Notes: generated by a model from the sequence alone, not told the origin. DNA of 64,000 nt from Minutocellus sp. GHC0000111 (GCA_977018835.1 OZ361256.1:5084001-5148000), one strand, 5' to 3'; shown: positions 16,057 to 64,000, counted from the stretch's first letter. Program-made: numbers and translations.

Positions 16057-16194
16057 CCTTATGCCCCACGCTGGATTGGTATAATTGTATTCGGACAATT
16101 GTCCCTAAAACCCTACAATCTGGACTTCCCTTCCGTTTCTAACCCTTATGCCCCACGCTGGATTGGTATAATTGTATTCGGACAATTGTCCCTA
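16057..16194 (+). repeat. 51-bp perfect direct repeat (16057-16107 and 16144-16194)
   Basis: CCTTATGCCCCACGCTGGATTGGTATAATTGTATTCGGACAATTGTCCCTA occurs twice with a 36-bp spacer. Confidence 0.9.
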
Positions 16195-16390
16195 CAATTC
16201 CACGAAATGTTTTTTCTGGCCAAACCTTAAATCTTGAGGGTCTTCATAGCACAATCGTATCTTTCTCATCGTTCTCGGCACAGATTCTTGGGTCTTCATA
16301 GCACAATCACATCGTTTAGTTTTGCTCATAATTGTGGTTTCCATCGATTACCCATCAGTTCACATATAATTAATTCAAATTATGCACAGT

Positions 16391-18873
16391 ATGAAGCTCG
16401 ACATTCCAACCTTCTTTTGCTTTATCCTGGCTTCTACTATATTCAGTCAAGCTTGGGCTAAAATCAATCCATGGGCTGGAATCCGAGGTGCCGAGAAACA
16501 ACTTCCACGTTCTTCTTGTCCAAGTTGCAATGGTATCGTGGAGGGACTTGGTAGTAGCGACTACGACATCAACTTCAATGAAACACTTGGACAAGGCAAG
16601 TGCGGTTGCAATTTTGGAGTTTGTAAATCCACCAGTGCCTGGCCGTCACTTGTAGCTTTTACTGGATACTCTGTCGATGAGTGCACAGTTAGTTATACCT
16701 TTGATGTCACATCGGCCGACTCCAATGCAATTTCTCACGGTGAGTGAAAAACTTCAGTGCAAAATCTTGTGTGTTCTTTGTGCCTAGCTAGGTACAGTAT
16801 TTTCCTCATTCATTTCTTTGCATTCATCCTTCCTCGTTATATCTCAGTAACGGCAGCTTGGGCGACTAATTGCTGCCTTCAGAGCTTCACGAGCTCAGTT
16901 GGCGTAGCTGATGATTCAATTGCAGAAGATCCAACGGTGTGTGCTGTTGGAGTGAAAAATGAAGCAAGTTTTTCAGATGGAGAGACGAGAAACTTCACCT
17001 TGACATTTGACAAGAAGGCGGTTCTAGATTATTTCTCAGGATCGATTGCAATCATTTTCAAGGGAGGGACACCCCAATCTGGTCACTGCCCGAAAGAGAA
17101 CCTTTCAAGGAATTCAACAATTGTGTCCAGAATTTGCCCGGACCACGATGTGAAAATCACCAGCCTGTCACCTCTGGTGACATTTTTTCGCCAAGCGCAT
17201 CCCCATCAACGTTGCCGTCGGTAATTCTTTCTCCAGCTCCTTCGAAGTCAACGACGGGACAGCCAACTAACTTACCGTCTCTGGAGCCTAGTAGCTCACC
17301 GTCGAGTACACCGTCGTCAGAGCCAAGCAGTGATCCGAGCTCATCGCCGTCGTCTGAGCCCAGCAGTGAGCCCAGCTCGTCTCCTTCGAGTACGCCTAGC
17401 TCGTCGCCGTCGTCTGACCCTTCGAGCGAAGAACCCAGCGATGTGCCGTCGTCGATGCCGTCGGTAGTACCTACTTTGGGACCGACGGTTCAGCTGAGCA
17501 ATATACCCAGCGATGTGCAGTCGTCGATACCTAGCAGTGAACCCAGCTCATCTCCATCGTCAGAGCCGAGTATGGAGCCTAGCTCATCGCCATCGTCAAT
17601 GCCGTCGGTAATGCCCACTTTCGGACAGACGGCACCGCCGAGCGACGTACCCAGCGATGTGCCGAGTAATGTGCCGTCGGCTGACCCTTCGAGTGAGCCC
17701 AGCTTGTCTCCGTCATCGATGCCATCGGAAGTACCTACTATGGGACCGACGGTGAACCCGAGCGACATACCGTCTTTGAGGCCATCCATAGATCTTTTAG
17801 TTTTTCCAAGCGTGCCTCCTTCGTCAAAGGTACTCCTTCCCGAAGGCGACAATAATTTTGATGGCACACACCATGGTGTTGACTTTATGGACGACGAAAT
17901 TTGTTTTATTCAAATACAGGAGGATGGGTGCCTATCTTCGGCGTGCTCGTCTCAGAATACAGCCCAAAATTCTTGCCTATGCAAGGGTAAAATCCTGGAT
18001 ACAACTTTAAGCGTTCTGGGCGGTGTTTCGTTTCCCGGAAAAAGCTACCTCATCATCAACACTGGCTGTTCTAGATCGGTCTTCAATCTTCCTCTTTATC
18101 ACGGCGAAGCCATCGCTTTTGGGTGTTCCGAGGGAAATTTTGGCTCAAAATCTTTTTTCTGTGCCTCTGACAACATCGATCTACCTTGTGACAACATTGA
18201 CTCGGATGACATCATCGAGATTTCCCATACGTCCTGCTCCGCTGTGTATGTGGCCGGACATCCGGCGCCTCTGGATGTTAACAGTCCAAATTGTCAAGAC
18301 AGTGAAAAAGGTGATCCGTCGCATTTTTTCCTAGTCAAAGACTTCAACGAGATCAACAAGGACACTGGAGAGATTAGATTCGTTTCAAGCGAATTGGACC
18401 TGGATCCGGATTGGCAAGTGCTGAGTGCACCAGGCAGTGAAAATATTATCACCACGGTCGTAGCAGATGGCGACGTGGCGCAGACACCCGCCCCAGTCTC
18501 TGCTCCAACCTTGAAAGAAACAAAGAGCGGAAAACGAACTCGCGCGCTTGATGTAGGTGACATCGGTTACCCTCGCCGCCGCAGGACAAAAAGCACCAAA
18601 AGCAACACCATTGATCCCAATCCTTTCATCGATGTAACCAAGCAGTATACCGTGACAAATCCTGCCAGTTCTATGAAGGCTCTTCTTGACGACGATTTAT
18701 ACAGCAACGGTGGGATTGAGATAGCCCCCGGAGAGGCTTTTACCTTTGTCGTTACATACCAAAATGTTGATACAACTAATCCTATGATTCCATCGGTTAC
18801 TGTAACTGCCAATGAAAACACTTGCGAATCGACTTCAGCCACACACTGCCCTGATGAAGATTCGACGCCCTGA
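16391..18873 (+). CDS. Secreted mucin-like protein with Pro/Ser tetrapeptide repeats flanked by Cys-rich domains; intron 16740-16847, frameshift near 17132
   Basis: Signal peptide MKLDIPTFFCFILASTIFSQAWA; GTGAGT...TCAG intron; (PSSE/PSSS/PSDV)n block at about 17280-17790. Confidence 0.75.
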
Positions 18874-19439
18874 AGTGGTCGCAGCAGCCAGAGTTAGAGA
18901 ACGCGGTCAATATCCCGCCCCAAATATTAGGAATTCCTACTCTCGTATTAACAAATACTTCCTTACCGGTTTATTATAAAAATAAACTACGTAGCTAGCT
19001 ACTAGCTAGGGCTCGTCTACATGTACATTGGTGCATAACATTCACAGCTCTCGAGCGAGTGAGTCGAGTCGAGTGAGTCTCGCAGAATTCGGCGAAGTGA
19101 CTTTACTTCGCCGAATGATTGCCCCGCCCTGAGCTGACGATGACCGACCCTGACCTGCCTGACCTCTCTCTCTTCTCGACCATCGCAAAGAGAAGTTCAA
19201 TAACTACCTACGTAGCTAGCTAGACAATTCGGGGGGCTTTGGATTGCAGACTGTATTGTCAGCTATTGCTAAGTTCCATATCCGTCTACTCGGAAGCAGA
19301 AGATTCAATTGGCCTGATTCGATTCGATTCGATTCATTCTATTTCGGTATTCGCATCGCTTGGCGCGCGCGCCAAACAAAAAAGTTCTGACAAGCGACTT
19401 CGAGACGCACTCCTGCACGAGCGACCCTACTGGCACGCC

Positions 19440-22400
19440 ATGTCAGAACGGAGGCTTCGATCAGGTAGTGTTGGGAGCGAGGGACAGCGCAGGGGGATCA
19501 TTCGGTTGAGTTCTCAGAGGTCCACGTCGATGCTGGTCGATGATGTCGACCATGCATCTACTAACAATCAAGCGGCGCCGCCTGGCGTCACCGCCGGCAA
19601 CGGCACCGGTGCCAGCAGAAGAAGGGCGTTGCCCATTCCGACGTTGCAGCATCTAACTCGAGAGGCTCTATTGTATGGTCTTGCCGATGGACATCCTGTC
19701 AGGTTGAGCCGAGTTGTTCGGGGCGAGATGAATGATGATGAGGTCATGCTGGCAGATCCAATTCCAATGCCTTCATCATGTCGGTCCGATGATGACTACG
19801 ACAACGACGACGATGATTGTGAACATCCAATGCCTCCAATGCAAATACCCTGTATTCCAGTATCGACAGCATTGCTATACGATCCATCATTTTGGAGTGG
19901 GCTGATATCAGAGGCAGCAAGGCGCCGACTGCTCTCGGATGAATTCCTAATTAGTCTGTGCGAATCGGGCATTCCACCGGCGCAACTGGAGCTACGAGGG
20001 GGCTTGACAGATGTGGCCGTTACCGACCGATTCTTGGTCAAGGCTCCGAGGGATGTTCCAGGCCAGGGGATGGCGATGTCTCAGCAGACCTTTGGGAGTG
20101 CATCGGAAATGCTCATTTCGTCTTTGCATCACTTGCGGCTTTCCGGGGGGTCGGAACGTGCATCCAGTGATATGGCAGTGGAGCGATTGGTTGGAGCAAA
20201 CGACCTTGAAACCTTTCTTCATAGGCTATCACGGTCAGCAGCGGACCTTGAAAGCTTGACGCTTGGCCCAAGTCTTTTGCTTCATGAGCTATCCAATACT
20301 TGGATTGGCAGTATCAAGGGGATATCTTCATTTTGTACCAGGCTTCGGTCACTTGAACTTCATGGGCTGGCCTTTGGAGGAACAGGAAGAAGTGACAGCG
20401 GATCAAGTATTGGTGGAACGACAGCACCCAGTAGTATAAGTGCTCTGTTCGAAGCGCTTGCGAGGAATTGTCAGACACTTGAACAGCTCTCCTTGGCGAG
20501 ATCTTCCGGGATCGAAGATAGACATTTACAGTCGCTTTTGTTGGAACTGAGAGATGGAACCATGTCCTGCCCGAATCTGAAAGATCTTGACTTGTCATAC
20601 ACCGGTGTGGGTCCTCTTGCCTTTTCGGCCCTATGTAGTCGACAATTGGGCTATCTTGATGAAGATGGCACAGACGATAGCAAGGGTATTCGAAAGCTTT
20701 GCCTCGACGGGACGGGTGTGGACCATTCGTGGTTGAAGCGAATATTGTCGTCGCTACCTCGGCTTGAGGATCTCTCAATATTGCATTGCTCCAATCTCGA
20801 GGCAGGACCGGAGATATGGGATATACTTGCCACTTCGTCTTGCAAGGAAATGAGATCGCAATTATTATCGCTGGCTGTTGAGCTATGGTTCTGCTCAGAT
20901 GAGATGTCACGTAGCGACAGCTTCCAGCGCTATTCCTGTGGATCAACATTATGATGATCATGAAATTGCTCTAGCAGCTCAGTACGATGAAATGAATCTG
21001 GAGGATTCTTTACCATTTCTACCAGACAGCACTGGTGATGATTTTATCAGTGGTGCATCGGAAGAGAGAGGGTGGTCATGCCGCCATTGTACCCTTATCA
21101 ACGAGAGTCAAGCCCACAGATGCGTTGCATGCAATGGACGAAGATATCCACATTCACCAGCCAGGAATGAAGATAGCACCGACGATAGTCTTGGTGATAT
21201 GGACGACGATGAAAATTTTAACCGAAAGCAAGCATCTTTATATGGCTTTCCGTCGCTTGGAAGACATCCGCTGCAATCATTCTCGGCAATTTTACACTTG
21301 GTGCGTGACGAAAGCGAAAATGCCACCACCGATCGAGAAGCGTCTGCTCAAGCGGCCACCGCGCTTTCTCAAAAGATTATCAATGCACTACCTGAAAAGC
21401 TTGTTCGTTTAAGTCTCTCGCTATACAACGGCGACGATAGTGGAATTTTATCGGATGGTTGTATTTTGAATAGCGATTTAGCATCCTCAATGCTCCAGCT
21501 GCACGGAACTACTTTGCAAGCGCTAGAACTCAAGTCAATTCGATTCAATGTGCCTCAAACGCTTCATGACATTTGCGTGGGATTCAAAGAGCTGAGAAGT
21601 CTCAAATTGTTTTGGTGTGCGCGAGTTTGGAATAACAACTGCTGAAATGTTGAGACTGATCTCGACATCTGGTGACCGTACCGCTGCGAGAGCGGGTTGT
21701 CCAAATCTTGAGATATTACAGATTTGCGTAAAAGATGATACCACGAGAATATCTTCTGAATACGGCACTGGCACCACCAATAGAAACGGTGAAGATGATG
21801 ACCAAAGTGACATTTGTTTCCGATCGTCATATCTCAAGAGATTATGGCTTGAAGGGTGTAATGACATTGTGAAGCTAGACTTGATGGAAGCACCTTCCAT
21901 CGAACGATTATCTCTCGTTAATTGTGGTTCTCTCACTCATCTGGGGATATTTGGATCCAATGGGGATGGACTCAGTACGGTGAGCTCGAAGAAACTTTCA
22001 ATGCATCAATGCGACCTTCGTAAACCGGCTTGACTAGTACTAATATTCCTTTCTGCCCTTTTCTGCCTCCCCCGCTACATTCACAGCTACAACGTCTCAG
22101 GATCAGGGGCACCAATCTCTCTCCGTATTCTATCGCGTCGCTGAAGTTGCCGCATCTGACAAAATTGGTTCTTGAAGCCATGGCCCATAATGAAGATTGG
22201 GAGATAGCGAAGATGATGGAGTTTTCATCTGAGAGCTTGACAGAACTGCGCATCAAGCACTGTCGCTTGCTCGGTGATTATCAGCAATGGTGTCCTCAAA
22301 GTCCTACATGTACAGGTTCGGACCAGTCATTGAGTGTGTTGGAACTTTTTCGGCCATCGGAATCCTTTGATGTAGTCAATTTTCAGAAGCAATTTGTCTC

Positions 22401-24660
22401 GGGAAAGCTCCGCGATCTGTCTATTTGCGAGGCCTCTGGCCTACAAGGTGATATTTATGGCCTTGCTACTGCAAATATGTCTCCCTCAAAGGCTGTTTCC
22501 AACGTGCTCGGGGATGGCTTGCCCAAGTCTGTTGATGGAAATTCATTGGGGGTTGTTCCCACCCCCAATAGTATTGGGGGAGGAGCAATCGATGAGACTA
22601 GTAGCCTTGCGGCAACGGAGATGCTCGGAGGTCGAGCTATCGATAGAATTTTGCTTGACTTTATTGAGAGGTCTCGCAACGGCGGTAGTGACGAGTATGG
22701 CTTCCCGCCCACTTTGAACGCTTTCCAGCGCAAGCGTGTACACGAGCGCGCCGAGGTGTTGAATCTCGAACACGAAAGTGTGCGTCTTAATACTGGGGTG
22801 AAGGTTGTGCGTGTTAGGAGACGAACAGCCACTGAAGCAGCAGATTTATTTGAGGAAGAACGTGAGGGCTCAACAACAGTTGGTGCGAACAATGTTGTCG
22901 ATACCAACGAAGCAGCTGCTGTAACTCCAGAGCAACAACAAAGGGCCCCAGTCAATGTAGAACCCCAGACTGTCCCTTCGAATCTTGAAAGGGCATTGTT
23001 GGCAGCTGCCGCTCCTCCTCCTCAAGTGACCTTTGCAGCGGACGTTGACAATAGTTCTACCAGTGAAGACGATGACAACGACAACGACTCAGAGAATGGA
23101 GATAGCGATGCTTTTTGTAGCGACGACGAGAGCAACAATAATGGCGGTGAAAGTACGCCCGCCACACCTTCACCACCCAGAGTTCGAGCGCGATCGCGTC
23201 GGGAGTTGAGAAAGGCAAAGCAAGCTGCAAAGAGAGGAGAGGTCTATCAATTCAAAGATGCCAGTGAGGACGGTATGGGCCGGACAAATGCCTCCGATAA
23301 TGAGAATGATGGCATAGATGATGATACCAACAATGCCTTTGATCCTCTCCTACAACAAGAACGCTTCGCTAGATTTGATCCCAAGGCACTTCGCAGACTC
23401 ATTGGCCTGGCACACAAGTTACCATTCGATTCAAATGGCACCGCCGTCTGTGTGCGATATCTACGCGGCGCTTGCCCGTACCAACATTCGAAGAATGGTG
23501 GCCAGTGCAGATACGCTCACTTTGACGTAAAGGCATCGACTGCCAAGAAATTTGCTCCGCTAATGGACTATGTTTGCGGTGCCGCGCATGCTGCTGCTCG
23601 CCCTTCGGTAGGGGGCAAAGAAAGCTCACGCCGAAAGAGTCGTGGCAATACCAGGAGCAATGAAGAACAAATGCTCGGGGCCAGCTACGGGAGTAATCCT
23701 GGTACTAGTAGTTACAACAGCGATGTCGGTGCAAACCTCATGGATATGCACGTCGGTAGCGGTGGAGGGGGGCGGGCTGGAGGCCGGCGACGTCGACGCA
23801 AGGGCAGCGTTGGCAACGAAGAGGATGCATTGGCATCAGAGGATGGATTATCATCTCGCGGTTCAAGTCCAGGGCGGAGTTGGCAAAGGCAATCCCTATT
23901 GTCCAGCAGTCCCCGAACTGGAATTGCTCTCGTGAGGAATGGCGGTATTGGAGGAACACCTCGACTGGACCTGAAACGATTGGTCAGGCTGGAAATCACA
24001 CGCTGTGAGAAGCTGACTGGTGCTTACCTCAATGCTCCATGCCTTGTTCGTCTGGGCATCCGCCAGTGTTCCTTCCTCAGAACACTTGACTTGACTGCAC
24101 CTCGCCTCACAACATTGGATGTCAGCGAATCCTTTCGCCTGGAAGAATTTCCTCTCCACGACGATAGCCTCCGAGGTCTACGAGTGGCAAATTTGAACGG
24201 GTGCAAGGCCCTGAACGAGGCGTTGTGAGTACACAGTACGCCTAGCTGGTCTAGGAAGTGGATCTTTCGACATCTATTCTTCTTGACGCCTCGTTGCCTT
24301 CCTCTTCTCATCTCATCTCAACTCACCACGCCGCTTCCTTGCTCTTTCTTCTCTCTCATCTTTCCCTGGACGCCCACCCGCAGTTGCTCTCGGCTCGTTA
24401 ATCACTGTCGCGCTTTGCGACAGCTGTATATTTTTGGTTCCGGAGCGTCAGAGAAGGCAAGCAATACCAAAATACGGACCAGGACAAAGACAAAGACAGC
24501 TCGTCTGGCTAAGCTGACGGCTGGCCGACCCAAGCTGACTCTCGTCAGCACCAAGATGCAACTGAAAAATGTTCAGGCCAAGAGGGAGGAGGTGGGTGGA
24601 CGTGGTAGCGGCTTTGTCGAGGAGGCCGATGGAGGCCTGCAGGGCTTGCAGCAGTACTAG
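19440..24660 (+). CDS. Large LRR protein containing a RanBP2-type zinc finger, an R3H domain and a CCCH zinc finger; introns 21980-22086 and 24225-24383; two frameshifts
   Basis: LRR motifs (CPNLKDLDLSYT, LPRLEDLSILHC); WSCRHCTLINESQAHRCVAC; FPPTLNAFQRKRVHERAEVLNLEHES; CVRYLRGAC...CRYAH. Both introns join in phase. Confidence 0.8.
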
Positions 24661-32059: not shown

Positions 32060-32493
32060 CCGACCAAGCTCATTGAACACATGCTCACCGCTGTCTTGGC
32101 CATCATCGTTGACCAGGAGAAAACTCTCAAGATTGACGGGCCCGAGGATTTTGAGAAGCACATGCTCCTCAATGTCGTCAGTCGACTCGTCTGCCGGGCG
32201 ACAAGGGCCAAGAACATGCCCCTCGACATGGATGATGTCGTGGCAATAACTGAATCGGTGTGTGCGACAAGGCCGCGGAGAGATGTTCCACTCTCCTCAC
32301 AGTTGCCTTCATCTACAAGTTCAACGGCGTGAAGTGGGAGCTAAAGAAGCTCAAGCTCATCCCGGATTGGCTGTGGTGCGAGATCCGGGACGAATGCATC
32401 GTACTGCCGATCCGAGGCGAGCATCATGCCATCGTTCAAGATGAAGACGAGATGGAGGCCGAACCGTCGCGTCGCACGAACGCGTCCATTTGA
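32060..32493 (+). pseudogene. Frameshifted ORF fragment ending inside the mariner subterminal region (putative cargo gene)
   Basis: ORFs 32081-32332 and 32260-32493 join across a GT-repeat. The last codons (ACG AAC GCG TCC ATT TGA) are the start of the 201-bp block shared with 63734-63934. Confidence 0.45.
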
Positions 32494-32758
32494 TTAGAGC
32501 CGCTGAAATCTAAAGTCTTATCCGAATTATTGTTTCACATGAAGATAAATCAAAATTAGAGTAAAAATAGCCATTTTCTTAAATATTTCAGCATGACTAT
32601 TCTTCGAGGCGCTTTTCAATCCCCTCGAAAGCAGTCAAAAACCGGGCGCTCGATTTCTCGCGAATCTGACCTCGTAAGATTCAGGCGGTTGCGGGCCCAA
32701 AAATCGACATTTTTTGGTCCCGGCCCTTCGCTCGATTTCTCGCGAAACGGACTTCGTA
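32476..32758. mobile_element. Nested ends of the mariner-type family: right end (32476-32674), TA, then inverted left end (32677-32756), TA
   Basis: 32476-32676 matches 63734-63934 with one mismatch. 32675-32758 is a diverged reverse complement of about 62073-62154. Confidence 0.9.
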
Positions 32759-50948: not shown

Positions 50949-52277
50949 TTAAAGTCTCCAATCTCTCAGAAAGCGAAATGGCTCAGTGGGGACGTCGTAC
51001 TTCACAAGATCGGTGCTGTAGTATTCATCGAAGTTGCCACTGACGCTACTGGTGTGTCGTTCGAACGACATGGCAGTGAAAAGTCCCTTGACTCCAGGAA
51101 CTTTCTGGTCGCTGGATAGGAGCTTCATTTCAAATCGAACATCGTGCCAAGGGTGGCTCGCCCACACCGTGACATTGTGCTTGTGAATCTCATATCGTGC
51201 CCACAGAGCGTTCTTATCCTTCTCTCCTGTGAGAGTCATCTTCACAAACCGGGGCAGCATCTCGTGAGGTGGTGCGCTCGTCAGGGCATAGAGGACACGC
51301 CCGTCCTCCTTGAAATACATGTATCGATAGTATGCCGACTCGAGGATTGCCCCTACAGGAATCTCCGTCCACATATCCCTCTGAATCTTCTTCACCTTGG
51401 AGTACTTGAGCACATAGACGCCGCTGGTACGCACACGGGGACGAGTCTCGAGCATCTTGCGATACGACCCGCCGAATCGAGAGACATGCAGGGCCTTTCG
51501 CCGACTTTGGTTGAGATAGCACCGTTCGCAGAGTTTCTTGTACACAGCCTCTGTTCGGGTGAATGTCTTCCAATGAGGAGTGACGAGTGCCATGATGCCG
51601 TACGCATCAATATCGAGATAGGTCAAAACACGATGACTGAGCTCTTCTGGAAAGATAAGGAACGGCCCACCACGCTTGAGCAACTCTTCCTCGGTCTCTT
51701 CACTTTTATCTTCCTTTGCATTTCCATCTTCATCCAAACCAGTGCTTTTCAGATTGGCTTTGCCAGCAACAGCGTTGTTGGAATCTGTTTCTACGACGAC
51801 AGAATCCTCAGACGTAGTAGATGAATCATCATTGTCATCATCTACTTGCGAATCAGTGACCGATTGAGCATGTGGCTTTTCATCATCTTCGCTCTCATAA
51901 TGTTCCAATTGGCGCCGGGGATCATCTGCCGATCGCTCCGCTACCGTTGGCAATCCCCAATTTCGAGGATCAGCTTCTGCATCGTAGAGGATGGCACCAT
52001 CATAGGCATCGCCAGAAGTTGAAGAGGCCGCCCGTGCCACAGTTGTGGCTGCCGTGTCAATGCCACCGGTGCCGCCTGCGCTGGCAGATGTTGCCTTCGA
52101 AAGCGTCATGTATTCCTCAAACTCTCCGATCGATTTATGTCCGTAGCGATTGGCAATGTCCTTGCGCTCGCTATGGCCGAGCAGATGCCAGATCGGCCAC
52201 GTCAGCTCCCACGATGCTCCAGTATTTTCATTAACCAGGTAGATTGGACTTGGATCATCCGAGGATGTGCTGTCCAT
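50949..52277 (-). CDS. F-box protein, FBXO9/Hrt3-like
   Basis: F-box-like FPEELSHRVLTYLD...VTPHW, followed by RPRVRTSGVY and YYRYMYF..DG motifs. Confidence 0.8.
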   Translation of the reverse strand: MDSTSSDDPSPIYLVNENTGASWELTWPIWHLLGHSERKDIANRYGHKSIGEFEEYMTLSKATSASAGGTGGIDTAATTVARAASSTSGDAYDGAILYDAEADPRNWGLPTVAERSADDPRRQLEHYESEDDEKPHAQSVTDSQVDDDNDDSSTTSEDSVVVETDSNNAVAGKANLKSTGLDEDGNAKEDKSEETEEELLKRGGPFLIFPEELSHRVLTYLDIDAYGIMALVTPHWKTFTRTEAVYKKLCERCYLNQSRRKALHVSRFGGSYRKMLETRPRVRTSGVYVLKYSKVKKIQRDMWTEIPVGAILESAYYRYMYFKEDGRVLYALTSAPPHEMLPRFVKMTLTGEKDKNALWARYEIHKHNVTVWASHPWHDVRFEMKLLSSDQKVPGVKGLFTAMSFERHTSSVSGNFDEYYSTDLVKYDVPTEPFRFLRDWRL

Positions 52278-52423
52278 GCGTTCGGGAGCCGCCCTCGCTG
52301 CCGCCGAGGCTGCGTCCGATGTTTTCGCATTGGCTTCACCAGCTGCCGCCGAAGTTTCGTCGTCGTTATCGACATCGTCTTCGTCATTGATCGAAAGCTT
52401 GGTAAATGGGGTTTGAGGGAATT

Positions 52424-52679
52424 TAAAACTAACTAACTACTGAGAGAGAGAGAGACAGGCTCTGGGAGCCGGTACTGTAAGCTGACTTAGCAATTGCAAC
52501 GGCAGCAATCGCAGATGGTTGTGGCTTGGTCAGTTGAGACGAGAGGAGGCGAAGGTGGTGGTCAGCAGAAAAACTGGGCACTACAGGAATACAGTTTTAG
52601 TGCCTGCTGCTAACCACCGTCGCAGTGCCTGCTGCTAACCACCAACGCCAGCTCATCCCCACCGTGCGGCACCCACAAC
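52424..52679 (-). repeat. Terminal direct repeat (3' copy) with an internal 25-bp duplication
   Basis: Matches 60489-60719 except for four TA-site differences and a duplicated AGTGCCTGCTGCTAACCACC block. Confidence 0.95.
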
Positions 52680-52876
52680 GATGACACATCGAACACAGTA
52701 CCTCCCTCCGCTGATTCTCCCAACTCTATGCAACTTAGTAGAACATGAAATGCAGTTTAACTACGTGAACTGGAGCTGGCATTGGCGGTAAATGAAACTT
52801 CTTAGAGAGGGTGAGGTCCCTCTCCCCCTCCTCCTTTCCGTAGCTAGCACAGATCGGCCAACAATGTGTGTCGTGC

Positions 52877-54166
52877 TTAGGTGAACAGGGCGAAGGGGGG
52901 CATTGGAGTCCCGAAGCCGGCATTTCGGCCAATGCTGTTGATGCCGGCGAAGGATTGGCGGCAATTTGGGGTCCTTGGGTCTTCGCGATGGTGGCTCGTT
53001 GAGTGTGCGTGGGGGGCACGTTGAAGAAGGAACCTCGTTGGATCATGCGTGTGGAGACTCCGGATGTAAATTCTTGGACCTGGCGACGGATGCACTTGAG
53101 GAAGGCGTCACTGGACCACCGCCCTACCAGCATGATTGTGTACGTGGGAACATCATTTAGACACATTGCCATTGCTGCTCCGCTGCGAATGGAGTGTGAT
53201 CCGAATTCAGAGGGATGGCAGCCCAGGCAGGACGTCCTCTCCAATCACTGTGGCCGACGCTCGGATCTTGTCAACTGTTCGGGTGGCAGGAATGTGTTTT
53301 AATACGCCGTTGACCACGAAGGCATTTACCGGCGCATCGCTGTTGGCACTAGGGCACCCTAGGACTCGTTTCACCAGGGCAGCCCAAGCTCGAACTGGGC
53401 AGAGGGTGGCGTCGTGGGTGCAGTGTTGCGCAATCGTGACGTCACGCTCGTCGTTCTTCTGGAACTCAAAGGTGACGGAGACAGAGTCTGCTGAGAGGAG
53501 GGACCGGTCGTTGTGACACATGCGCCGTCGGCCGCGGTAGAACTGGATGTTGCGGAGGCGGAGCAGCTTGGTCCTGCGCTCACCGCTGACTCTGGAGTGT
53601 TCGCAAGACCTCATCGCGAAGAAGAAGAAGGCGCCGACGGCTAGTTGCCCGACTGCACGGTCCTCTTCCGTTTCCCTGACGGAGGCGATCTCTCGGAGGA
53701 GCCGGCAGGTGATCGCCTTCTCCGGCCGCTCGGCCGGGTCGGACTGGCTGTGTCCTCGGAACTGCCGCTGCAGAAGGAGTGAAGGCTGGCCGATGTCGTC
53801 TTTCCCTGGGTCCCTGCGCTGGTTGTGCCGGAAGAAGGGCGAGCGTGCACATGAGACGGTGTCTCGGACTGTCGACGCAGCCAGTCGCGAAAACTTTGGC
53901 CCCGAAAAGCTGGCCTGTCGGACGGCGTGGGCAAAGGCGCCGAGAATGACTGTTCGGTCTCGGGGTGACACCTTGTCGAGGAAGACGTCGTCCCCGGTCC
54001 CGATGAGCTGCAGGAACTCAGTCCAGCCGCTCCACGCGAGAGCGTGCTTCTCGGCAGTGGCCGTTGTGACTGCTTCCTGACGGGCAGCGACCGCGCCTGC
54101 GAGACAATCCAGGAAGCAATCTCGTTGGGAGGTGGTGCAATCCTGAAATTTGAGGGAAGCTGACAT
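52877..54166 (-). pseudogene. Tyrosine recombinase of the retroelement (frameshifted; catalytic Tyr>Cys)
   Basis: AMRSCE (R), HSIRSG (HxxR), GRWSSDAFLKCIR where Y is expected at C; frames change near 53225 and 53000. Confidence 0.9.
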
Positions 54167-56234
54167 TCGGGAGATGACAGAAGCAATTTCGTGAGGTCAG
54201 CATCAGAGAGATCGGTGTCACGAGAAAGAGAGTCGGCCTCCGGATTGCGCTTCCCCTGGAACCACTGTGAGTGCAGCATGGTGTTGGTCTCGATGAGTGT
54301 GCCGGCTAGTTTCCGCGCCGTGGCCAGCTTGACCGCTACGTCGGCATCCTTCTCGCCGTGAGACACGAAGTTCGACTTCCTGAGCCATCCCTCGGCCGTG
54401 GTGCTGTCGGTCCCCGACAGTGCGCAGGAGAGGGTTGGCAGGTTGCCCTCGATGTGGTCGATCCATGGGCCGATGACGGCGGCGAGGAACTCCAGGCAAT
54501 TGAGGGTGAACCGGCCCCACAGCTCCTCGGGGAGGGCAAATCTCCACGCTCTGCCGGATGAGGACCATCCGCCGATGCCGTGCTCGCAGGCGTCACTCAT
54601 GTGCTCGTGGGTGGGGCAACGGTGCGTGAGGAGGTTCATGCTCATGCCATCGGCGGCCCTTCGGAGGAAGCGGAGCCACAGGTTGAGGTCTTCTGCATCC
54701 TCAGAGTCAAACCGTTGGCGGCCGTGGCGGCGGGCCTTCCAGAGCCGATCCCGAAGGCGGCTGAGGAAGTGTCGTGCGGCTGGAATGATGTGTCCGACGT
54801 GGTTTAGCCTTCCGACCAAGGTGTCCAGCTCTGATCTGGTGGCGCCGCGGGCTCTGAGGAGCCGAAGCATGTCATCGCGCCAGGCCAGGCACTTGCTCCA
54901 AGGGAGCCTCAGTGGGAGCCGCCGGGTGTCAGCATCCCACCCCAAGAGACACAGTGCTTCGGAAGGCGTCCCCTCGGCGAGCAGCTTCTTGATGGAGGCA
55001 AGGTCATCTCTGGGCAGTGGCTCGCTGTCGGACACCGGTCGGCCAAGCGCGTGGATGGCGAGGAGGGTGGCAGCGGATGTCCGATCCTTGTTGTCGCCCA
55101 GGTCAGGGGCTGCGGCGATGAGGTCATCGATGCACGGCTCGACGATGCCATCCTTGTTGTCGGGAAGGGTTACGATCATGTCCAGGGCCGGCACGAACGG
55201 CACATCGTCGCCCTCCACCTTGGGGCGACCCAAGTGCTTCTGCTGGGGGCTATGGAGCTCTGACGGGTCCCAGTCCGAGCATTGCAGGAGGGCCCTGGCC
55301 AGGTCGGCCGCCGATTCGGATGCATTGCACCATTCGCTCGGGCAAGGGCGGCCGCCGAAAGTCAGCCGGAGGGACATGAGGGCAATGCCATCCAGGGTGG
55401 TGATCGTTTTGACGGCCGTGCTGGGAGCCAAGTGGGCCCGGCGACACGCAGCCTTGAAATCGACCTTCTGCAGGAGGATGGGAGTGCGGGGATGCTTGTG
55501 ACGGGCATCTACGATGTGGTGGATCACTCGCCGGAGGGCATGGCCGAACACCACTGGCTGGTGGTCCTCTCCATGCGCACTCTGTTGTTGACGGACCGTG
55601 CGGTGCCGATCTCGAAGGATTGGTCGTGAGTCAGGCGGTCCTTGGGCATGATCTCGCCAGCCTCGCTGATCGTGTTCTGTGCTGCCAAACCCATCGGAGC
55701 AACCTCCGCTCCAGGAATGAGGGGCGCGACCTTTGCTGGCAGAGGGAGGGCGAAACCGCGGGTCACGTCGTCGAGAACTTGGTCCTTGAGTGCCTCCGGC
55801 CTGTCCCTGGCCGATTTGTGGTTGCCTCGGCCGATGTTCTTTGTCACGCTGTCCAGTCTGCTTTCGTCGCTCACCGGATCGAGGGCCCAGTCGGATCCAC
55901 TGTCGAGAATGGAGCGGAAGCGGGGCCACAGCGGGTGCCGGCCAAGAATCGGCTCCAGAAGACTCAGGTCTCTGAACTCCGATCCCGGTTGGAGTGGCGA
56001 CCCGCCCTGCGCCTCGAGTGCCCTGCTCAGAGAACGATCGTGTTTCTTGAGGACCGACCAATTGTGAGCGGCGGCCTCCGTCAAGAGCTCAAATCTGAAC
56101 TCCGTGGGCTTCGGTGTGGCCGACGGGGACTCGACTGCCCGTCGGACGTGCTGTGCCAAGGTGGAAACATCAAAGATGGGCTCTAGTTCCCACGTGGAAT
56201 TGCACAAGGCGAGGAAAAGGTGAGACATGTGCAT
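53641..56234 (-). pseudogene. Reverse transcriptase-RNase H of the retroelement (frameshift near 55565; YIDD>CIDD)
   Basis: KDRLTHDQSF, DFKAACRR, LTFGGRPCP, CIDD, LGW, then RNase H SDAC, NCLEFLA, TDSTTA, NPEADSLSR. Confidence 0.92.
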
Positions 56235-56838
56235 GCTGCACGTTCACGAGCATGCGGGTCTGTCCCACCGTGGTGGGCCCATTGTGGGCGCTGGGCTGCC
56301 CCGTTTGTTGCAGGTGTTTCTTCACCTGTTCGTCTCACTTACCATTTTGGCGCATCGGTTCTGCTTCCTTGCTGTGCGTAGGGGAACCAGGGGGAGACTG
56401 TGCTTCGGGTTGGGGCTGCTTGCCTAGGAGATCCTTCTCTCGCTGGCCTAGCCGGTCGAAGAGGTTGTCGGTGGCTTCCGCACCGCCAGCGTCAGTGATG
56501 CTGGAGCCAGAGCCTGAGATGCTGTTGTCGGCGCAGGCATCACCGCTGGTGTTAGGGGGACCAGGACCCGACCGAAGGTCACTGCTAACGCCTCGGCCTT
56601 CTGCTCCGGTGTTAGGGGCACCGGAGAGCCTGGATTGGTTGCTGATGTCGTTGCGACCGCACACGCCGGATTTTGGGGTGCCGGACAACCTTGGGCGGCT
56701 GGAGCCACCGGGGCGGATCGACGCCGACGTGTCTGGCTGCACTCGACGGCGCTTGGAGGGACGAGCTCGGCCGGCTGGCCGAGATGTTTCTCCAGCATCC
56801 TCCGAGGGTGGGCCACGCCTCCGTGCCCACCCGATCCG

Positions 56839-58880
56839 TCATTCCTCCGCCTCCTCGTGCTTCCGATCGCATTTCTCGACGTGCTGCTCGACGGGTCCTC
56901 TCTCCGATGCCTTAAGAGGCCTCTTGACATGCGACTTCTTGAGCTTGCACGAGGATCCGGCGCCGCAGACACCTATCAGGATGAATGGAGGGCAGAATTT
57001 ACAGCCATTAATTTCAGGTCTGTCCTCATAGGGCTCGGATTTCTTGCCATGCCGTTTTGCAAAGTTGCCGGGGTTGACATCGAACGTGACGAAGTGTTCG
57101 CACTGGTGGGCTCTGCCGCTGGCGCCGCCCGTCTTTTGCTTCTTTTTCGGACTGGTTCTTGGCTCTGATTTGTCGGAGTCGGAATCCGAGGAAGGGGTGG
57201 GAGCGTCGGCCGATTGGACGAGCTTGATGTGGCTGGGGTAGACGAAAGGATTCTGAGTCTTCATCATCTTTTTGGACTCGTCGGCCATTGAGAAGCAAGA
57301 GAGGTCGTTGCCGGCGTCGTCGGGGGAACGGAGACAAGCTTTCCAGAATGCATGGATGGAGGCGTCGACATTGTGGAACATTGCCAGCCAGAACTTCTCG
57401 CCATGGCTCTCGGCGATGTCGCGGTGCTGGTCCTCGTGTGTCTTCATGTGACTGAGGACCCTGGCAACGTAGCGAGCGGGCAAGGAAGGAAATGCCAGCG
57501 CCGAAGGCCGAGATGTGACGTTTGGCACCGTCGTGCTCGGTTGGGGACCGGCAGTTCTGCTTCAGAAGAGCCTTCACCTGAGTCGAGGTGCATCCTTTCT
57601 CTTGAGAGGCGGCGAGGTGCAGGGGCGCATTGCTGCTGCTGGAGTTTACCGGGCTAAAGGCGAAGACAGAGAAGCCATCGCAGATTTTCTTGTCGCTCTT
57701 CCCGAAGCCAAAGAGGCGGACGCAAGTGGTGAGGCCCTGGAGAGATGTCCTGACTCCGGTCTTGCCCTTTACATGCAGCTCGAGGCCGACGGCTGCTTGC
57801 GTGAGGTTTGACTCTTCCAGCAGTGCTTTCAATCCTTCGGGAAGATTCGAGTCGATCGCTGCTGCATCATCGTCATGCTCGGTCGAGACCCGGCAGAAAG
57901 CGGCACAGGCCTTGAGGATGGCGCCATTCATCGAGTGCTTCTTGTCGACCTTGTCAGTGTAGGCCATGACTGCGCCGGTGAGGGAGGATGCTTCGGACGC
58001 GGCCCTAGTCATGGCGTTGGCCGCGGCAGCAACTAACTGCAGAGTCGGTCGGGGCGCCACCGGCTGGTGGTCCGTCGCCACTGGCGCCAGTGATGTGCCG
58101 AGCTTGCATCTCACGGGCGTGTCTCTTGAGAGCCGGGTCCGTCGTTGGGTGCAAGCTGACGGCCGGGATGTCACCTTGCTCGGACGTGGCGACGAACCAC
58201 AGCCACTTGACGACGTGTTGAACAGCCTCATTGGAGCGAAGACCTGCTGCGCCACCATGACCCTCGTCGTCACCGCTGTCTGATGCGTCGTCGCTGCCGG
58301 CGTCCTCATCCAGCCGACGTTTGATGGCGGACAGGATGGCCCAAGGCGATGCCTCGTGCTCTTCCAGAACATTCTGCAGAATCGAAGGTGGCAGCAGCAC
58401 AAGGGACTTAAACTTCGTGGAGGCACTCCGGTGGCGGGTGTTGGAGCCTTCCTGGGTGAGACCGGTTAGGGCGGCTTCTGACGGTGCCCCCAGCATGGCT
58501 TCCACCGATGGGGCTAGGACCTCCTTGCACCGCAAGAGGCTAGGTTGGGCCAACGACATTGCCGGGGCTACATCGTCGATCCCGAGGAGCCCACCCAACC
58601 TGAGGTCGGGCTGCATGGTGGTGCCTCCCTGAGCCACGGCATGGTGAATCACAACGACTTTCCCTTCTGGATGGTGGGCCAGCATGGACAAACCCTCGGC
58701 GTCGCGGATTTGCTGCTGGATCGCTCGGGCATGGCTCTGGACCACAGCGGCCGTGGGGTCGATTTCACAGACGTTGTCGGCGAGGAATCTCTGGAAATCT
58801 CGAGCTGCGGCGGCGTCGGCCCCGGCCGGCATCTCTTGTGCCAGTGGGACTGACTTCCAGGTGTTGAAAGATGAAGCCAT
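56839..58880 (-). pseudogene. gag-like ORF of the retroelement, frameshifted, with a C-terminal CCCH-like motif
   Basis: Overlapping ORFs 58005-58889, 57026-58426 and 56839-57528, ending in CPPFILIGVCGAGSSCKLKKSH just upstream of RT. Confidence 0.65.
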
Positions 58881-58896
58881 GGTGATCAATGCTCGA

Positions 58897-60480
58897 TCAC
58901 CTTGCCTGTCGCCTTCGGCGTCGGTCCTCTCGGCGCTGGATGTGGTTCAGATCGGCCGTGAGGGTGAGGATGCGGTCGGCGATGTCGGGCTCTCCAAAGG
59001 CGGACAGAAGGATGTTGAATGCCTGACGCGATGGCTCTGATGCCAAAATGTCGGCGGTGATGTCTCGCAGGCGGACAGGTGCCTCGAGATCGTCGGGGCG
59101 CCGGTGAATTGATGCTCTTGGCCAGACGCGGCAGTGGGCACCCTCCCAGCGATTTGGATCGGCCGCATCGTCTAGCCACCTCGGATAGACTCGATGGTAG
59201 GTGCCTGCCCAGCGGTGTGAGGGGGACGCCGTTAGGTCTGCCAGCCTTCCCCAGTGTTCGTACGGGTTGACCTCCACTCGGTGTCCAAGAGGATTGCTGT
59301 CAGGCCGAGTGTGTCGGAGTCGAGCGCTGGTGAGGCTCTCGAATCCACTGTCCCAGTTGATAACAGCTTCAGTGAGTTGGTCCGGTCGTAGGCACTGCCG
59401 TCTCTGGAACGGGTGCGGCGAATCCAGCGGGAACTGGGTGACCAGGGCGAAAGGGCCGATGAGATCTCCTCGCTCCAATGCCACACTGACGCCAGCCCGC
59501 TCGGTTCGGTCGTGTGCGTCACGTGGGTAGAAGAGTGGCCTTGCCTCCCACTCGAAACAAGTGAGCGGCAGCGTTGGTGGAAGCTCGCTCCCCCGTGAAC
59601 CTGTGCAAGCGTGCGGTGTCGGCTCTAGAGGTCTGCCCTCTCTGGCCGCGATGCGCCGTCTTTCTTTTCGGTCGGCCTGGCAGTGGAGGATGCACTGCGT
59701 GAGCCGGCAGAGCTGGGGCCAGATGCAATGGTGTTGCCGCGCTGCTGCTGCCGATGCCTCCGGACACCTTCGCCCCCGACACTGTTGAACCACGACGCCT
59801 CCGTCTGCCCGTGGTAGTCGGCACAGTGCACTGCTCAGGTCCAACTCAGTTGCCGTCTCGTGTGCCCGGCGGATCTCAGGCTCGGTGAGGCGCGTGGCTG
59901 TCAGCCAGATGTTGACGAGGCACGTGGGCCAGTCCGGTGACACCAAGAAGGCTTGTTGCTCGAGGTGCTCGGCGACCAGACCGTGCGCTGCTGGAGCAAG
60001 GTGTGAAACGGCTGCTGCTGGGGATGGCTGGCACCCCGTGGCTCTCGATGGGAGGCAGCCTGTGGCGCGCTCGACGAGATCGGTGAGGTGCTCGGTGACG
60101 TCGATTCGGCCCTCGGCAAAACTTTTCCACCAATCCAGTGCGTCTGTGGTCAGTCTCTCGGACGACGCCCTGGCTGTGAAGAAACTTCTGCGCCCGGGCC
60201 GAATCTGACGTCTGAGTCTGTCCCAGCCTCGTGGAAGGTCAGGAGAGTCTCCTCGGACGATGAGGTCTCTTGCCACTCCGAACAACACGTGATCCAGTTC
60301 CGGTCGATCTGGTTCGGCCATGCACTGTTCTGCCGTCGTAGAGACTGGTGGTGTCGGATCTACGTGCACTGTCAACGGAGCTGAGCCGTGGCCGTTTGAC
60401 TCCGGAGTCGACTGCGGTCTCTGGACTAACAGCAGTGGTGGTGTGTCGGCAACAATTGCGAACTCGCAGAGCAGCACCAA
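58897..60480 (-). CDS. Additional 5' ORF of unknown function inside the retroelement
   Basis: 527-codon frame between the 5' repeat and the gag-like ORF; first ATG at 60321. Confidence 0.5.
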   Translation of the reverse strand: MVLLCEFAIVADTPPLLLVQRPQSTPESNGHGSAPLTVHVDPTPPVSTTAEQCMAEPDRPELDHVLFGVARDLIVRGDSPDLPRGWDRLRRQIRPGRRSFFTARASSERLTTDALDWWKSFAEGRIDVTEHLTDLVERATGCLPSRATGCQPSPAAAVSHLAPAAHGLVAEHLEQQAFLVSPDWPTCLVNIWLTATRLTEPEIRRAHETATELDLSSALCRLPRADGGVVVQQCRGRRCPEASAAAARQHHCIWPQLCRLTQCILHCQADRKERRRIAAREGRPLEPTPHACTGSRGSELPPTLPLTCFEWEARPLFYPRDAHDRTERAGVSVALERGDLIGPFALVTQFPLDSPHPFQRRQCLRPDQLTEAVINWDSGFESLTSARLRHTRPDSNPLGHRVEVNPYEHWGRLADLTASPSHRWAGTYHRVYPRWLDDAADPNRWEGAHCRVWPRASIHRRPDDLEAPVRLRDITADILASEPSRQAFNILLSAFGEPDIADRILTLTADLNHIQRREDRRRRRQAR

Positions 60481-60488
60481 CCTAATGC

Positions 60489-60719
60489 TAAAACTAACTA
60501 ACTACTGAGAGAGAGAGAGACAGGCTCTGGGAGCCGGCACTGCAAGCTGACTTAGCAATTGCAACGGCAGCAATCGCAGATGGTTGTGGCTTGGTCAGTT
60601 GAGACGAGAGGAGGCGAAGGTGGTGGTCAGCAGAAAAACTGGGCACTACAGGAATGCAGTTTTAGTGCCTGCTGCTAACCACCGTCGCCAGCTCATCCCC
60701 ACCGTGCGGTGCCCACAAC
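60489..60719 (-). repeat. Terminal direct repeat (5' copy)
   Basis: 231 bp, matching 52424-52679. Confidence 0.95.
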
Positions 60720-61162
60720 CTCCTTCGTTTCGGAGATCGGCGCAAGCCCTCCACCGGCACTGGACCGGTCGCCTGTCCTTTTGGTCATGTCGACGAGCTA
60801 CCAGCGTAATGGCAACGGCAAGGAGGAAGGGTTGGTGGGGGTGTGCGATAACGAGGTTAGCTGAAGTGGTAGGTTTCGACGCATTTGCCGAGCACCATGG
60901 TGCAATTAATGCGTGCTGCACAGACACTGAGGCCATTCTGGCTGAGTTCTGAGCTGGTGAACGTCTGTCAGTCTTCCGGGGTGGCTACTTTGCTGACTTC
61001 ACGAAAGTTGCTGCTGCCGCGAAGAAGCGGCAAGCAACATAACAAAGCAAAGGGAAGAAATCTAATCGAATCTCCGCTATTGCCGTGAGAGGGCTGAAGT
61101 GCCGCGGCAGCAACAACAAGGGAAGAAATCTAACAAATCGAACCTTTGCATATGCGCTAGCC

Positions 61163-61975: not shown

Positions 61976-62074
61976 AAACCTTAAAAAAACACCGAGCGAG
62001 CGAGAGACAGTTCTCCAACCAAGCAAGCATGCAGAGGAAGTGCCGCGTCACATCATGGCTGTCAACAAACCCTA

Positions 62075-63932
62075 CGAAGTCGTTTCGCGAGAAATCGAGC
62101 GCAGGGTCGGGACCAAAACAGCGACTTTTTGGGCCCGCAACCGCCTGAATCTTAGATCTACCGGCATTGAATACATGTACAATGCAAAGTACATGTATTG
62201 CAGCAGCTAGTATCCAGATCTACAATCCAATCTAGTATTATTAAACACAATATAACTTAAAAGCACCGCAGGACTAATTATCCATGGTTGGATCAGCAGG
62301 AGGAGGAGCGATAATTTTCCCATCTATCCGAACCATGCCATTTTCAGTCGGCCTGAAATCCTTTCGCACCCCAACATGAATGCCTTCACCGTTTCCAAGA
62401 AAATCATTGTTGCCTTTTGCAACGATTACCTTCTTTGCAATTCTATGAGCCTGGATGTATGCCGATGCGATCTTCCAGTTTTCCAGCCCCATCCAAACTT
62501 CCTCCGCTGCATCCCAAGTCTGATCCTCTGTCAAAACCTTCAGCCCCTCCCGATCGCGGCACAACATTGTATGCTGCTTTGACATGCAAGGGAAAACAGA
62601 CAGATCAAGAACATTCATATGGGGCATTTGCGGGGCCTGAGGTTCCCAACGCCATCCCTTGTCCCGACAGTATCCTTCCACATATTCCACAAATTCAGTC
62701 TCGGCATGGGGCCCAGCATTGTCGCCCTGGAAAATAGGGACATAGCCTTCAAACTTTCCACCAGGTCCGACCAAAGCCTCAACATCCGGAAACATCTTGT
62801 TCTCAAATAAAGCTTTCAGTGGGAACTTGGGATTATCAAGGGTGCCATGGCTGCATCCAGTCACCGCGCAATCCACAAGGTGTAGATCGTCTTTCTTCCG
62901 AACCACCGGGCCGCAATATTTGATTCTACCATCTGCCTGCCGCACCGCCTCCCTTACCATCTGCCTCGCAATTTTATGCGCCTGAGCCCGAAAAAGTCCA
63001 AGCTTGAACGCAATGCCGCCATTCTCAATGCTGTCAATAAAAGCCAAGGCAGTGACAGCCACCACCATGCACTTGTTGATGTGATTTCGGTGATATGCCG
63101 AGAAGGACCGAGGATCAATACCCAATTCTGCAACTTGCTTGGCATGCGATCGAAGAACCAAGCCCCAAAACCACTTCTCATCGAACATAACAAGGAGAAA
63201 CTTGCCACCGCCGAGCCCCCAATTGTTTCGGAATTTCCGCGCAAATGCCAAATGTTTCTCCATCTGATGTGTAGTAAGGAGAGGGATGATCCTTTCGGCA
63301 TAGTACCGGAACCCTTCCCGCGACATTATCCACCGCCGTATTGCCGAGTAGGAACACCAAAAGTTGACATCCACCTCCAGCTCCCGCCAAGATTCCCGAG
63401 GATTTCGTATCAGAGCATCAACAATAACATCTCGAATGTATGGCTGCATAGCCAGATGAGATCTCCTCTTCATCTCCCACATCGCCTTCTCAGATGCAGG
63501 TAGAGCACCATACGCCTTCATCCATCCCGAAAATCGTGCACCATGCTCTGCGCTGGACAGCACCGAATAGTCCACCTTTGCCTGCTCCCTGCACTTGGCA
63601 ATTGCAAAGAGACATGGTGCAGTATACCGCCGGGTCGCCGTTGCAAGATCGTCGATGACAGAACGGAAGGCGGCCGAATCAGATGAATCATCGGCACTCG
63701 TTGGGAAGCAGTATGCCGGTCCAACCAAGTGCGACGAACGCGTCCATTTGATTAGAGCCGCTGAAATCTAAAGTCTTATCCGAATTATTGTTTCACATGA
63801 AGATAAATCAAAATTAGAGTAAAAATAGCCATTTTCTTAAATATTTCAGCATGACTATTCTTCGAGGCTCTTTTCAATCCCCTCGAAAGCAGTCAAAAAC
63901 CGGGCGCTCGATTTCTCGCGAATCTGACCTCG
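62075..63932 (-). mobile_element. Tc1/mariner-superfamily DNA transposon, internally deleted, with TA target duplication
   Basis: TA|CGAAGTCGTTTCGCGAGAAATCGAGCGC ... GCGCTCGATTTCTCGCGAATCTGACCTCG|TA, an imperfect TIR of about 29 bp. Confidence 0.92.
62274..63728 (-). CDS. Mariner-type transposase, DD38D triad, 5' end missing
   Basis: FDEKWF, QGDNAGPH and PHMNVLDLSVF, with 38 residues between the second and third Asp. No ATG between the upstream stop (63768-63770) and the track's TTG start. Confidence 0.88.
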   Translation of the reverse strand: MVGPAYCFPTSADDSSDSAAFRSVIDDLATATRRYTAPCLFAIAKCREQAKVDYSVLSSAEHGARFSGWMKAYGALPASEKAMWEMKRRSHLAMQPYIRDVIVDALIRNPRESWRELEVDVNFWCSYSAIRRWIMSREGFRYYAERIIPLLTTHQMEKHLAFARKFRNNWGLGGGKFLLVMFDEKWFWGLVLRSHAKQVAELGIDPRSFSAYHRNHINKCMVVAVTALAFIDSIENGGIAFKLGLFRAQAHKIARQMVREAVRQADGRIKYCGPVVRKKDDLHLVDCAVTGCSHGTLDNPKFPLKALFENKMFPDVEALVGPGGKFEGYVPIFQGDNAGPHAETEFVEYVEGYCRDKGWRWEPQAPQMPHMNVLDLSVFPCMSKQHTMLCRDREGLKVLTEDQTWDAAEEVWMGLENWKIASAYIQAHRIAKKVIVAKGNNDFLGNGEGIHVGVRKDFRPTENGMVRIDGKIIAPPPADPTMDN

Positions 63933-64000
63933 TACATGTAATAGATCAAGATATTGTTTGCAGTTTTCTAGAGTTAGATATTGATAAGGTCACAGTACGG

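Follow-up and report, generated by a model that had tools for sequence, protein, structure and literature searches.

Loss of TpA on both strands of a Ngaro-like retroelement in the diatom Minutocellus

Introduction

The two terminal repeats of a broken retroelement in the diatom Minutocellus sp. GHC0000111 differ at four dinucleotides, at each of which at least one copy carries CA or TG. Is this the trace of a process that destroys TA, on both strands and at the level of DNA, or does an ordinary transition spectrum suffice? The original prediction took TA as the ancestral state and held that the changes arose independently in each repeat, on both strands, probably after integration. Here we follow up that reading in a stretch of 64,000 nucleotides (GCA_977018835.1, OZ361256.1:5084001-5148000; hereafter the window), using read contigs, related proteins and the host DNA around the element.

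A precedent for dinucleotide-specific transitions on both strands is RIP in ascomycete fungi, in which repeat copies are inactivated independently and the changes can leak into flanking DNA. RIP converts CA and TG to TA (C>T at CpA), raising TpA. We found one direct report of defence by changing A to G in genomic DNA, from a rhizarian alga. Two viral regions integrated in Bigelowiella natans as single-copy DNA gained 231 new mutations in mutation-accumulation lines, of which 230 were A>G or T>C at TpA, about 1,000 times the background rate, and ADAT2/3 was proposed, not shown, to be responsible (Mettrop et al., bioRxiv 10.64898/2026.01.13.699255).

Results

Structure of the element and of the interrupted gene

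Judged by its motifs and homologues, the element appears to be a Ngaro-like tyrosine-recombinase retroelement (Table 1), with the order A1, broken upstream frames, reverse transcriptase (RT)/RNase H, tyrosine recombinase, probable B1 and A2 along the minus strand. As described in PMC8547959, the Ngaro layout is A1-ORFs-B1-A2-B2. The element resembles it in the direct A repeats at both ends, in the order RT/RNase H then tyrosine recombinase (assigned from motifs and homologues) and in a junction without target duplication, as read from the empty-site contigs of runs X1 and X3; it differs in measuring 8.3 kb against about 6 kb, in lacking B2 and in having every frame broken. Contigs of other copies place B sequence beyond A2, implying a B2 there, and the full split-repeat layout occurs in a distant relative (L020). 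The empty-site joint was found in contigs of X1 and X3, with a matching loose end in X14. Searches of Pfam and PDB sequences gave no match to the element's proteins, and the upstream frames, in the position of gag, had none in Pfam. In the RNA runs the element is present merely as contigs, which says nothing on expression.

The insertion splits an FBXO9-like gene after codon 23. The empty site restores one continuous F-box reading frame, the uninterrupted allele is present in other samples and uninterrupted homologues are intact, the closest named one being that of Minutocellus polymorphus (82%). Elsewhere in the window, named homologues of SSRP1 are nearly all diatom entries, and together with the F-box match this makes a cymatosiroid diatom the probable host. 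A near-perfect 54-bp direct repeat lies in AT-rich DNA at 16057-16197, three diverged 74-bp units fall within a coding frame at 17445-17782, and two long frames next to each other at 19224-24228 have weak leucine-rich-repeat matches.

Table 1. Coordinates of the features discussed, counted from the first base of the window
Feature	Position	Strand	Remarks
Ngaro-like tyrosine-recombinase retroelement, broken copy, 8,310 bp	52409..60718	minus	empty-site joint 52408/60719
Repeat A1, 5' end of the element	60489..60718	minus	CA at 60538 (site 1) and 60543 (site 2); TG at 60655 (site 3) and 60710 (site 4)
Repeat A2	52424..52679	minus	TA at 52473 (site 1), 52478 (site 2) and 52590 (site 3); CA at 52670 (site 4); imperfect 25-bp tandem duplication near 52624-52648
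Probable repeat B1, limits approximate	52680..52817	minus	contigs of other copies join 52807 to 52409
Putative RT/RNase H region, frameshifted	53641..56243	minus	YIDD reads CIDD, codon at 55134
Putative tyrosine recombinase, frameshifted	52735..54196	minus	presumed catalytic Tyr (codon at 53094) reads Cys
Broken upstream frames, gag position	56335..58946	minus	one weak match to a related locus
Host F-box (FBXO9-like) gene, main part, severed from its start by the insertion	50949..52408	minus	PF19270
Same F-box gene, first 23 codons	60719..60788	minus	from empty-site frame and homologues
Two TA>TG changes in host DNA	52109..52139		299 and 270 bp beyond the junction; A at both in the empty allele (X1, X3)
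Tc1/mariner-like DNA transposon, internal control	62073..63935	minus	PF01498 below cut-off; empty site in X1 and X3

The repeat pair and its ancestral letters

Alignment of 52424-52679 with 60489-60718 reproduced every claimed difference between A2 and A1, with its coordinates: TA against CA at sites 1 and 2, TA against TG at site 3, and CA against TG at site 4. The count of four substitutions holds for dinucleotides; by bases there are five, because the CA/TG swap at site 4 represents two changes. The statement that nothing else differs besides the 25-bp duplication did not survive, since the second unit of that duplication is imperfect and reads AA where the other repeat has GT, a non-TpA difference inside the indel. 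About a quarter (24%) of repeat positions are able to link TA with CA or TG through one transition, and three single TA-type changes would arise by chance with p about 0.013. The pair by itself is therefore only suggestive of a TA-specific process, and its letters can equally be read as ordinary C>T change, with RIP-like gains (CA>TA and TG>TA) in A2 and methyl-CpG decay at site 4. From two repeats this reading is just as simple.

The contigs of four runs were aligned to A1 and a complete variant table was drawn up, with the proviso that contigs are collapsed and lose minor variants. At 60538 and 60543 all four runs have T at or near full depth, and the C of A1 is therefore derived at sites 1 and 2. 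No alternative letter reached 3% at sites 3 and 4 in the contigs aligned to A1, so that the collapsed contigs have TG there, as the C>T reading also allows; CG at site 4 was seen in none of the contig variants of the four runs. By the rates of the coding region, described below, TA is about 10,000 times more favoured than CG at site 4; from these rates, and from the RTAY still retained in A2 (see below), we infer that ancestral TA is the better reading at sites 3 and 4. The proposal of an ancestral TA at site 4 thus stands as the better one, with TA itself nowhere visible there in the window.

Direction, strands and independence in the family

In host DNA the ratio of observed to expected TA is 0.62; the element has 0.23, and two of its RT bins have 0.09. 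For CG the ratio is 0.91 in the element against 0.98 in host DNA, and the CG depletion that methyl-CpG decay would bring is not encountered. We then compared 63 sibling proteins (14 closest matches and 49 cluster members) with the remaining 106 matches as outgroups, retaining 775 columns with at least 8 siblings and at least 30 outgroups each. Sibling proteins are not equivalent to loci: the 63 include two pairs identical in pattern, and P0148 is probably the window copy.

Twelve columns are of tyrosine type, and among their 354 sibling residues we counted 49 Tyr, 152 His, 153 Cys and no Arg, so that 305 of 354 have changed. In codon terms His represents TAY>CAY and Cys TAY>TGY, and a CG ancestor would leave Arg; His and Cys without Arg therefore mean that TA became CA or TG and that the ancestor was not CG. 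At 10 of the 12 columns, that of the YIDD motif among them, Tyr or Phe predominates in the outgroups; in the siblings the tyrosine position of YIDD holds His 35 times, Cys 8 times and Tyr once. Changes of A>G and T>C are confined to TpA, with only 7 of 5,003 non-TA codons of this type changed, and CGN arginine codons show 11 CpG-type changes in 1,446; the other A contexts and CpG have changed about 100 to 600 times less than TA. Polymorphic columns fall on TA-type sites in 41 of 43 cases, against 271 of 732 non-polymorphic columns (Fisher p 4e-15), and a TA ancestor fully explains 38 of the 43, leaving 5 that TA does not explain. At the level of the family the TA pattern is thus far beyond chance, TA was the starting state in the coding region of the element, and it gave way to CA and TG equally on both strands.

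The same data bear on the C>T reading set out above. Thirty of the 43 polymorphic columns formally fit a CG ancestor too and, with the low CpG change, speak for it; the family state of T at sites 1 and 2, the loss rather than gain of TA, the absence of Arg from the His/Cys columns, the Tyr or Phe of most relatives and the absence of CG at site 4, where the rates so strongly favour TA, all speak against. CA or TG as the ancestral state, which had been named as the finding that would overturn the prediction, is contradicted at sites 1 and 2, where the reads have T, and at all 12 tyrosine columns. We regard the C>T reading as very improbable overall: it is refuted for the family, and may hold for site 3 alone.

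The hits look independent in each copy. Forty proteins cover at least five of the 12 columns; every one of them is hit, and 38 combine His with Cys. The window copy itself has six of each. Pairwise distances between copies have a standard deviation of 0.108 (721 pairs), equal to that obtained from shuffled columns (0.108), as would be the case if each copy had been hit on its own. The direction, the symmetry between strands and the independent hitting of copies, as originally proposed, are supported by the reads and the sibling columns. The predicted proteins of the element have lost conserved and presumed catalytic tyrosines: the recombinase position at codon 53094 is Tyr in 55 of 55 aligned relatives, and at six mostly-Tyr recombinase columns the window copy has His or Cys in five and Phe in the sixth.

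Among the 106 more distant proteins the signal was weak: four have His or Cys in one or more of four Tyr columns that are strongly conserved. These proteins (P0014, P0075, P0115 and P0117) may represent the same process in other hosts. A cluster of nine proteins (P0006 and P0170-P0177) is about 69% identical to the window RT, and its representative P0006, with AYRR and YIDD intact, is the closest relative that seems to have escaped. Scanning metagenomes with the protein of the window itself gave 164 pattern matches and zero relatives, and a scan with an alignment query gave 79 distant loci, none of the element's family. The TA ratio of these loci is 0.35-0.76 against 0.08 in the window copy, none approaching the depletion of that copy; they are little informative on the spread of the process because they were picked via an intact motif and probably come from collapsed assemblies. 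Their terminal repeats, where found, are 98-100% identical. A reading in which the majority sequence is intact at YIDD was dropped, as it came from the 40 of 187 variant rows listed, among which partner rows may be missing; the direction of change was judged without these rows.

The sequence motif

RTAY occurs four times in 7,809 bp of element interior (0.5/kb) against 627 times in the 52,408 bp of host DNA to the left (12/kb), whereas YTAR is found 32 times (4.1/kb) in the element and 250 times (4.8/kb) in the host; the contrast between RTAY and YTAR has p 2e-13. Per kilobase bin there are 0-2 RTAY in the element, with none across the 2.6 kb of the RT/RNase H region, and the 52 host bins have a mean of 12 and a minimum of 3, so that the depletion is confined to foreign DNA. 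Loss of RTAY with YTAR spared means that the mutated A has T before it and a pyrimidine after it, and the target is thus TAY over TAR. Repeat sites 1, 3 and 4 are RTAY, and site 2, which is TAY on the minus strand alone, is predicted to give CA, as seen. Contexts with AA are spared (Lys>Arg 0/897, Asn>Ser 4/511, Phe>Ser 0/634), as is CA (Gln>Arg 1/546). A2 retains two of the six RTAY remaining in the whole element; the four repeat sites are a lightly hit margin of the process, the ends of the element being less saturated than its middle.

The motif also bears on assembly or consensus error in a repeat as the source of the differences. Many small indels in the element and its siblings would fit such errors, as would a frameshift in an uninterrupted F-box allele of the protein set. 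The same CA/TG swap sites, however, recur in independent short-read contigs from four runs, frames of more than 1,200 codons stay open in host genes of the window, and errors would not respect TAY, so that we give this explanation hardly any credence.

Relative to the read contigs, the window carries extra 2-4 bp tandem duplications at 52804, 52841, 52989, 53011, 53224, 53618, 55567, 58031, 58252, 60346 and 63721, ten in the element and one in the Tc1-like transposon among the 12 of 28 indel rows listed, with none in 3.4 kb of left flank (X1). The sibling proteins have 25 distinct single-residue insertions, nearly all private. The tandem duplications are either a second signature or assembly error.

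Host flank and DNA transposon

The A repeats of a Ngaro-like layout are not LTRs. Unlike LTRs, Ngaro A repeats need not be identical at insertion, and the repeat pair itself accordingly gives no argument for change after integration; that argument stands instead on the copy patterns and on the DNA beyond the element. Comparison with the empty allele of X1 across 3,416 bp of left flank shows four differences in the allele carrying the insertion, and two of these are the TA>TG changes at RTAY listed in Table 1. The change at 52110 is synonymous, and that at 52139 is Tyr>His at a residue that is Tyr in 11 of 11 closest homologues. Among flank TA sites, 2 of 14 near the junction have changed against 0 of 99 far from it (p 0.014, for a near interval chosen afterwards).

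In the right flank we found no insertion-linked TA change. RTAY is low there, which is not linked to the insertion because the empty allele has it too; position 60843 is heterozygous in empty-site runs, and TA/TG variation thus also occurs in alleles without the insertion. The F-box differences I260V and V358A, considered as spill from the insertion, are TA-type in appearance and were rejected for lack of any tie to it, I260V being common to the uninterrupted F-box allele.

The Tc1/mariner-like transposon served as an internal control. Against four siblings at 97-98% identity it shows ten in-frame residue differences, seven of them TA-type, in a count that left out three siblings at 82-94% identity and rows at the frameshift boundary. 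RTAY is not depleted in it (25 in 1,863 bp), so that being repeated is alone insufficient as a trigger. A 283-bp internally deleted Tc1/mariner-like derivative at 32476-32758 has both ends in common with it.

Together, the flank changes and the hits in the Tc1-like element favour action on chromosomal DNA. The competing account places the editing before insertion, A>G occurring on RNA and again on single-stranded cDNA so as to yield TG and CA in each copy. It draws on the single-stranded cDNA described for DIRS-1 (PMC7192593), and independent copy patterns are expected from it too. It is disfavoured because host DNA in the flank and a DNA transposon, which has no RNA intermediate, have also changed, and pre-insertion editing has no reach to either; moreover, the 152:153 balance would require equal editing of two different substrates, and the B. 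natans change, as reported, arose in resident single-copy DNA. We consider editing before insertion distinctly unlikely, and very probably the process acts on integrated chromosomal DNA after insertion. The originally proposed DNA-level process is in this way favoured by the flank and the Tc1-like siblings, short of proof, and its timing after integration by the copy patterns and the flank.

Discussion

We think it rather probable that a host enzyme converts the A of TAY to inosine in inserted copies, with the loss of TA on both strands. An element would insert and its copies become a target on the chromosome, perhaps marked by their silencing state; the A of TAY would then be converted to inosine on transiently single-stranded DNA and fixed as G at replication, giving TG or CA depending on the strand, with a short spill into neighbouring host DNA and an outcome that would benefit the host as a defence. 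For the enzyme, a TadA/ADAT-family deaminase acting on transiently single-stranded DNA is our candidate, with somewhat better than even support by analogy.

The A>G changes made by polymerase eta fall preferentially at TA and AA, and the same TAY hypermutation of chromosomal DNA might arise by other chemistry, through an error-prone polymerase on silenced repeats or mispairing of modified A or T. All the evidence for action on DNA fits such a source equally well, and the many private 2-4 bp tandem duplications in copies may mean repeated nicking and repair synthesis. The AA contexts, however, are barely changed, unlike the eta signature, and the strict preference for a 5' T and a 3' pyrimidine is TadA-type-like; we hold this chemistry to be unlikely, if less so than editing before insertion. 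The deaminase step is preferred because the TAY preference resembles that of TadA editors and because AA is spared. The TadA-derived adenine base editors ABE3.1 and ABE8e-YA likewise make A>G changes on DNA, with a preference for YAC or YAY>YAR (PMC12528748); by that account they are engineered, Cas-guided and accept CA, which the process described here spares.

By analogy, the process in the element would work like that in B. natans, with which it shares A>G and T>C change confined to TpA, on both strands, in foreign DNA and several hundred- to thousand-fold over background. The preprint (bioRxiv 10.64898/2026.01.13.699255) concerns a rhizarian alga in which single-copy virus insertions were followed as new mutations, TpA is still common and transposons are only suggested by Pfam enrichment, whereas the present case is a diatom with a multicopy retroelement near saturation, lighter hits in a DNA transposon, a preference for TAY over TAR and possible spill into a host gene. 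Its main text names no diatoms and no motif beyond TA; its supplements may bear on the motif. Among the titles and abstract openings that we searched, mostly outside subscription journals, none reported TpA A>G hypermutation in diatoms.

The chemistry is the opposite of that in RIP, TA being destroyed here and made there, as the depletion of TA and the ancestral T at sites 1 and 2 attest. Pairing of repeats may not be enough to trigger it, given how little a high-copy transposon close by has been affected. A broader conjecture, which we put forward tentatively and as somewhat doubtful, is that diatoms run an adenine-based mirror of RIP, in which a natural TAY DNA adenine deaminase would be steered to inserted mobile DNA, mutate both of its strands almost to saturation soon after insertion and leak over a few hundred bases into neighbouring genes. 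This deaminase would have a common origin with the system of Bigelowiella; the defence would then be an old one in the SAR lineage, and it would offer a natural enzyme for A-to-G editing of DNA.

With this case the TpA spectrum reaches a diatom, and a retroelement in addition to viruses, and its motif narrows to TAY. A natural DNA adenine deaminase, should one prove responsible, would be of interest for base editing. Diatom transposons mutated in this way lose their tyrosines and are missed by Pfam, and dating them by divergence would be badly off.
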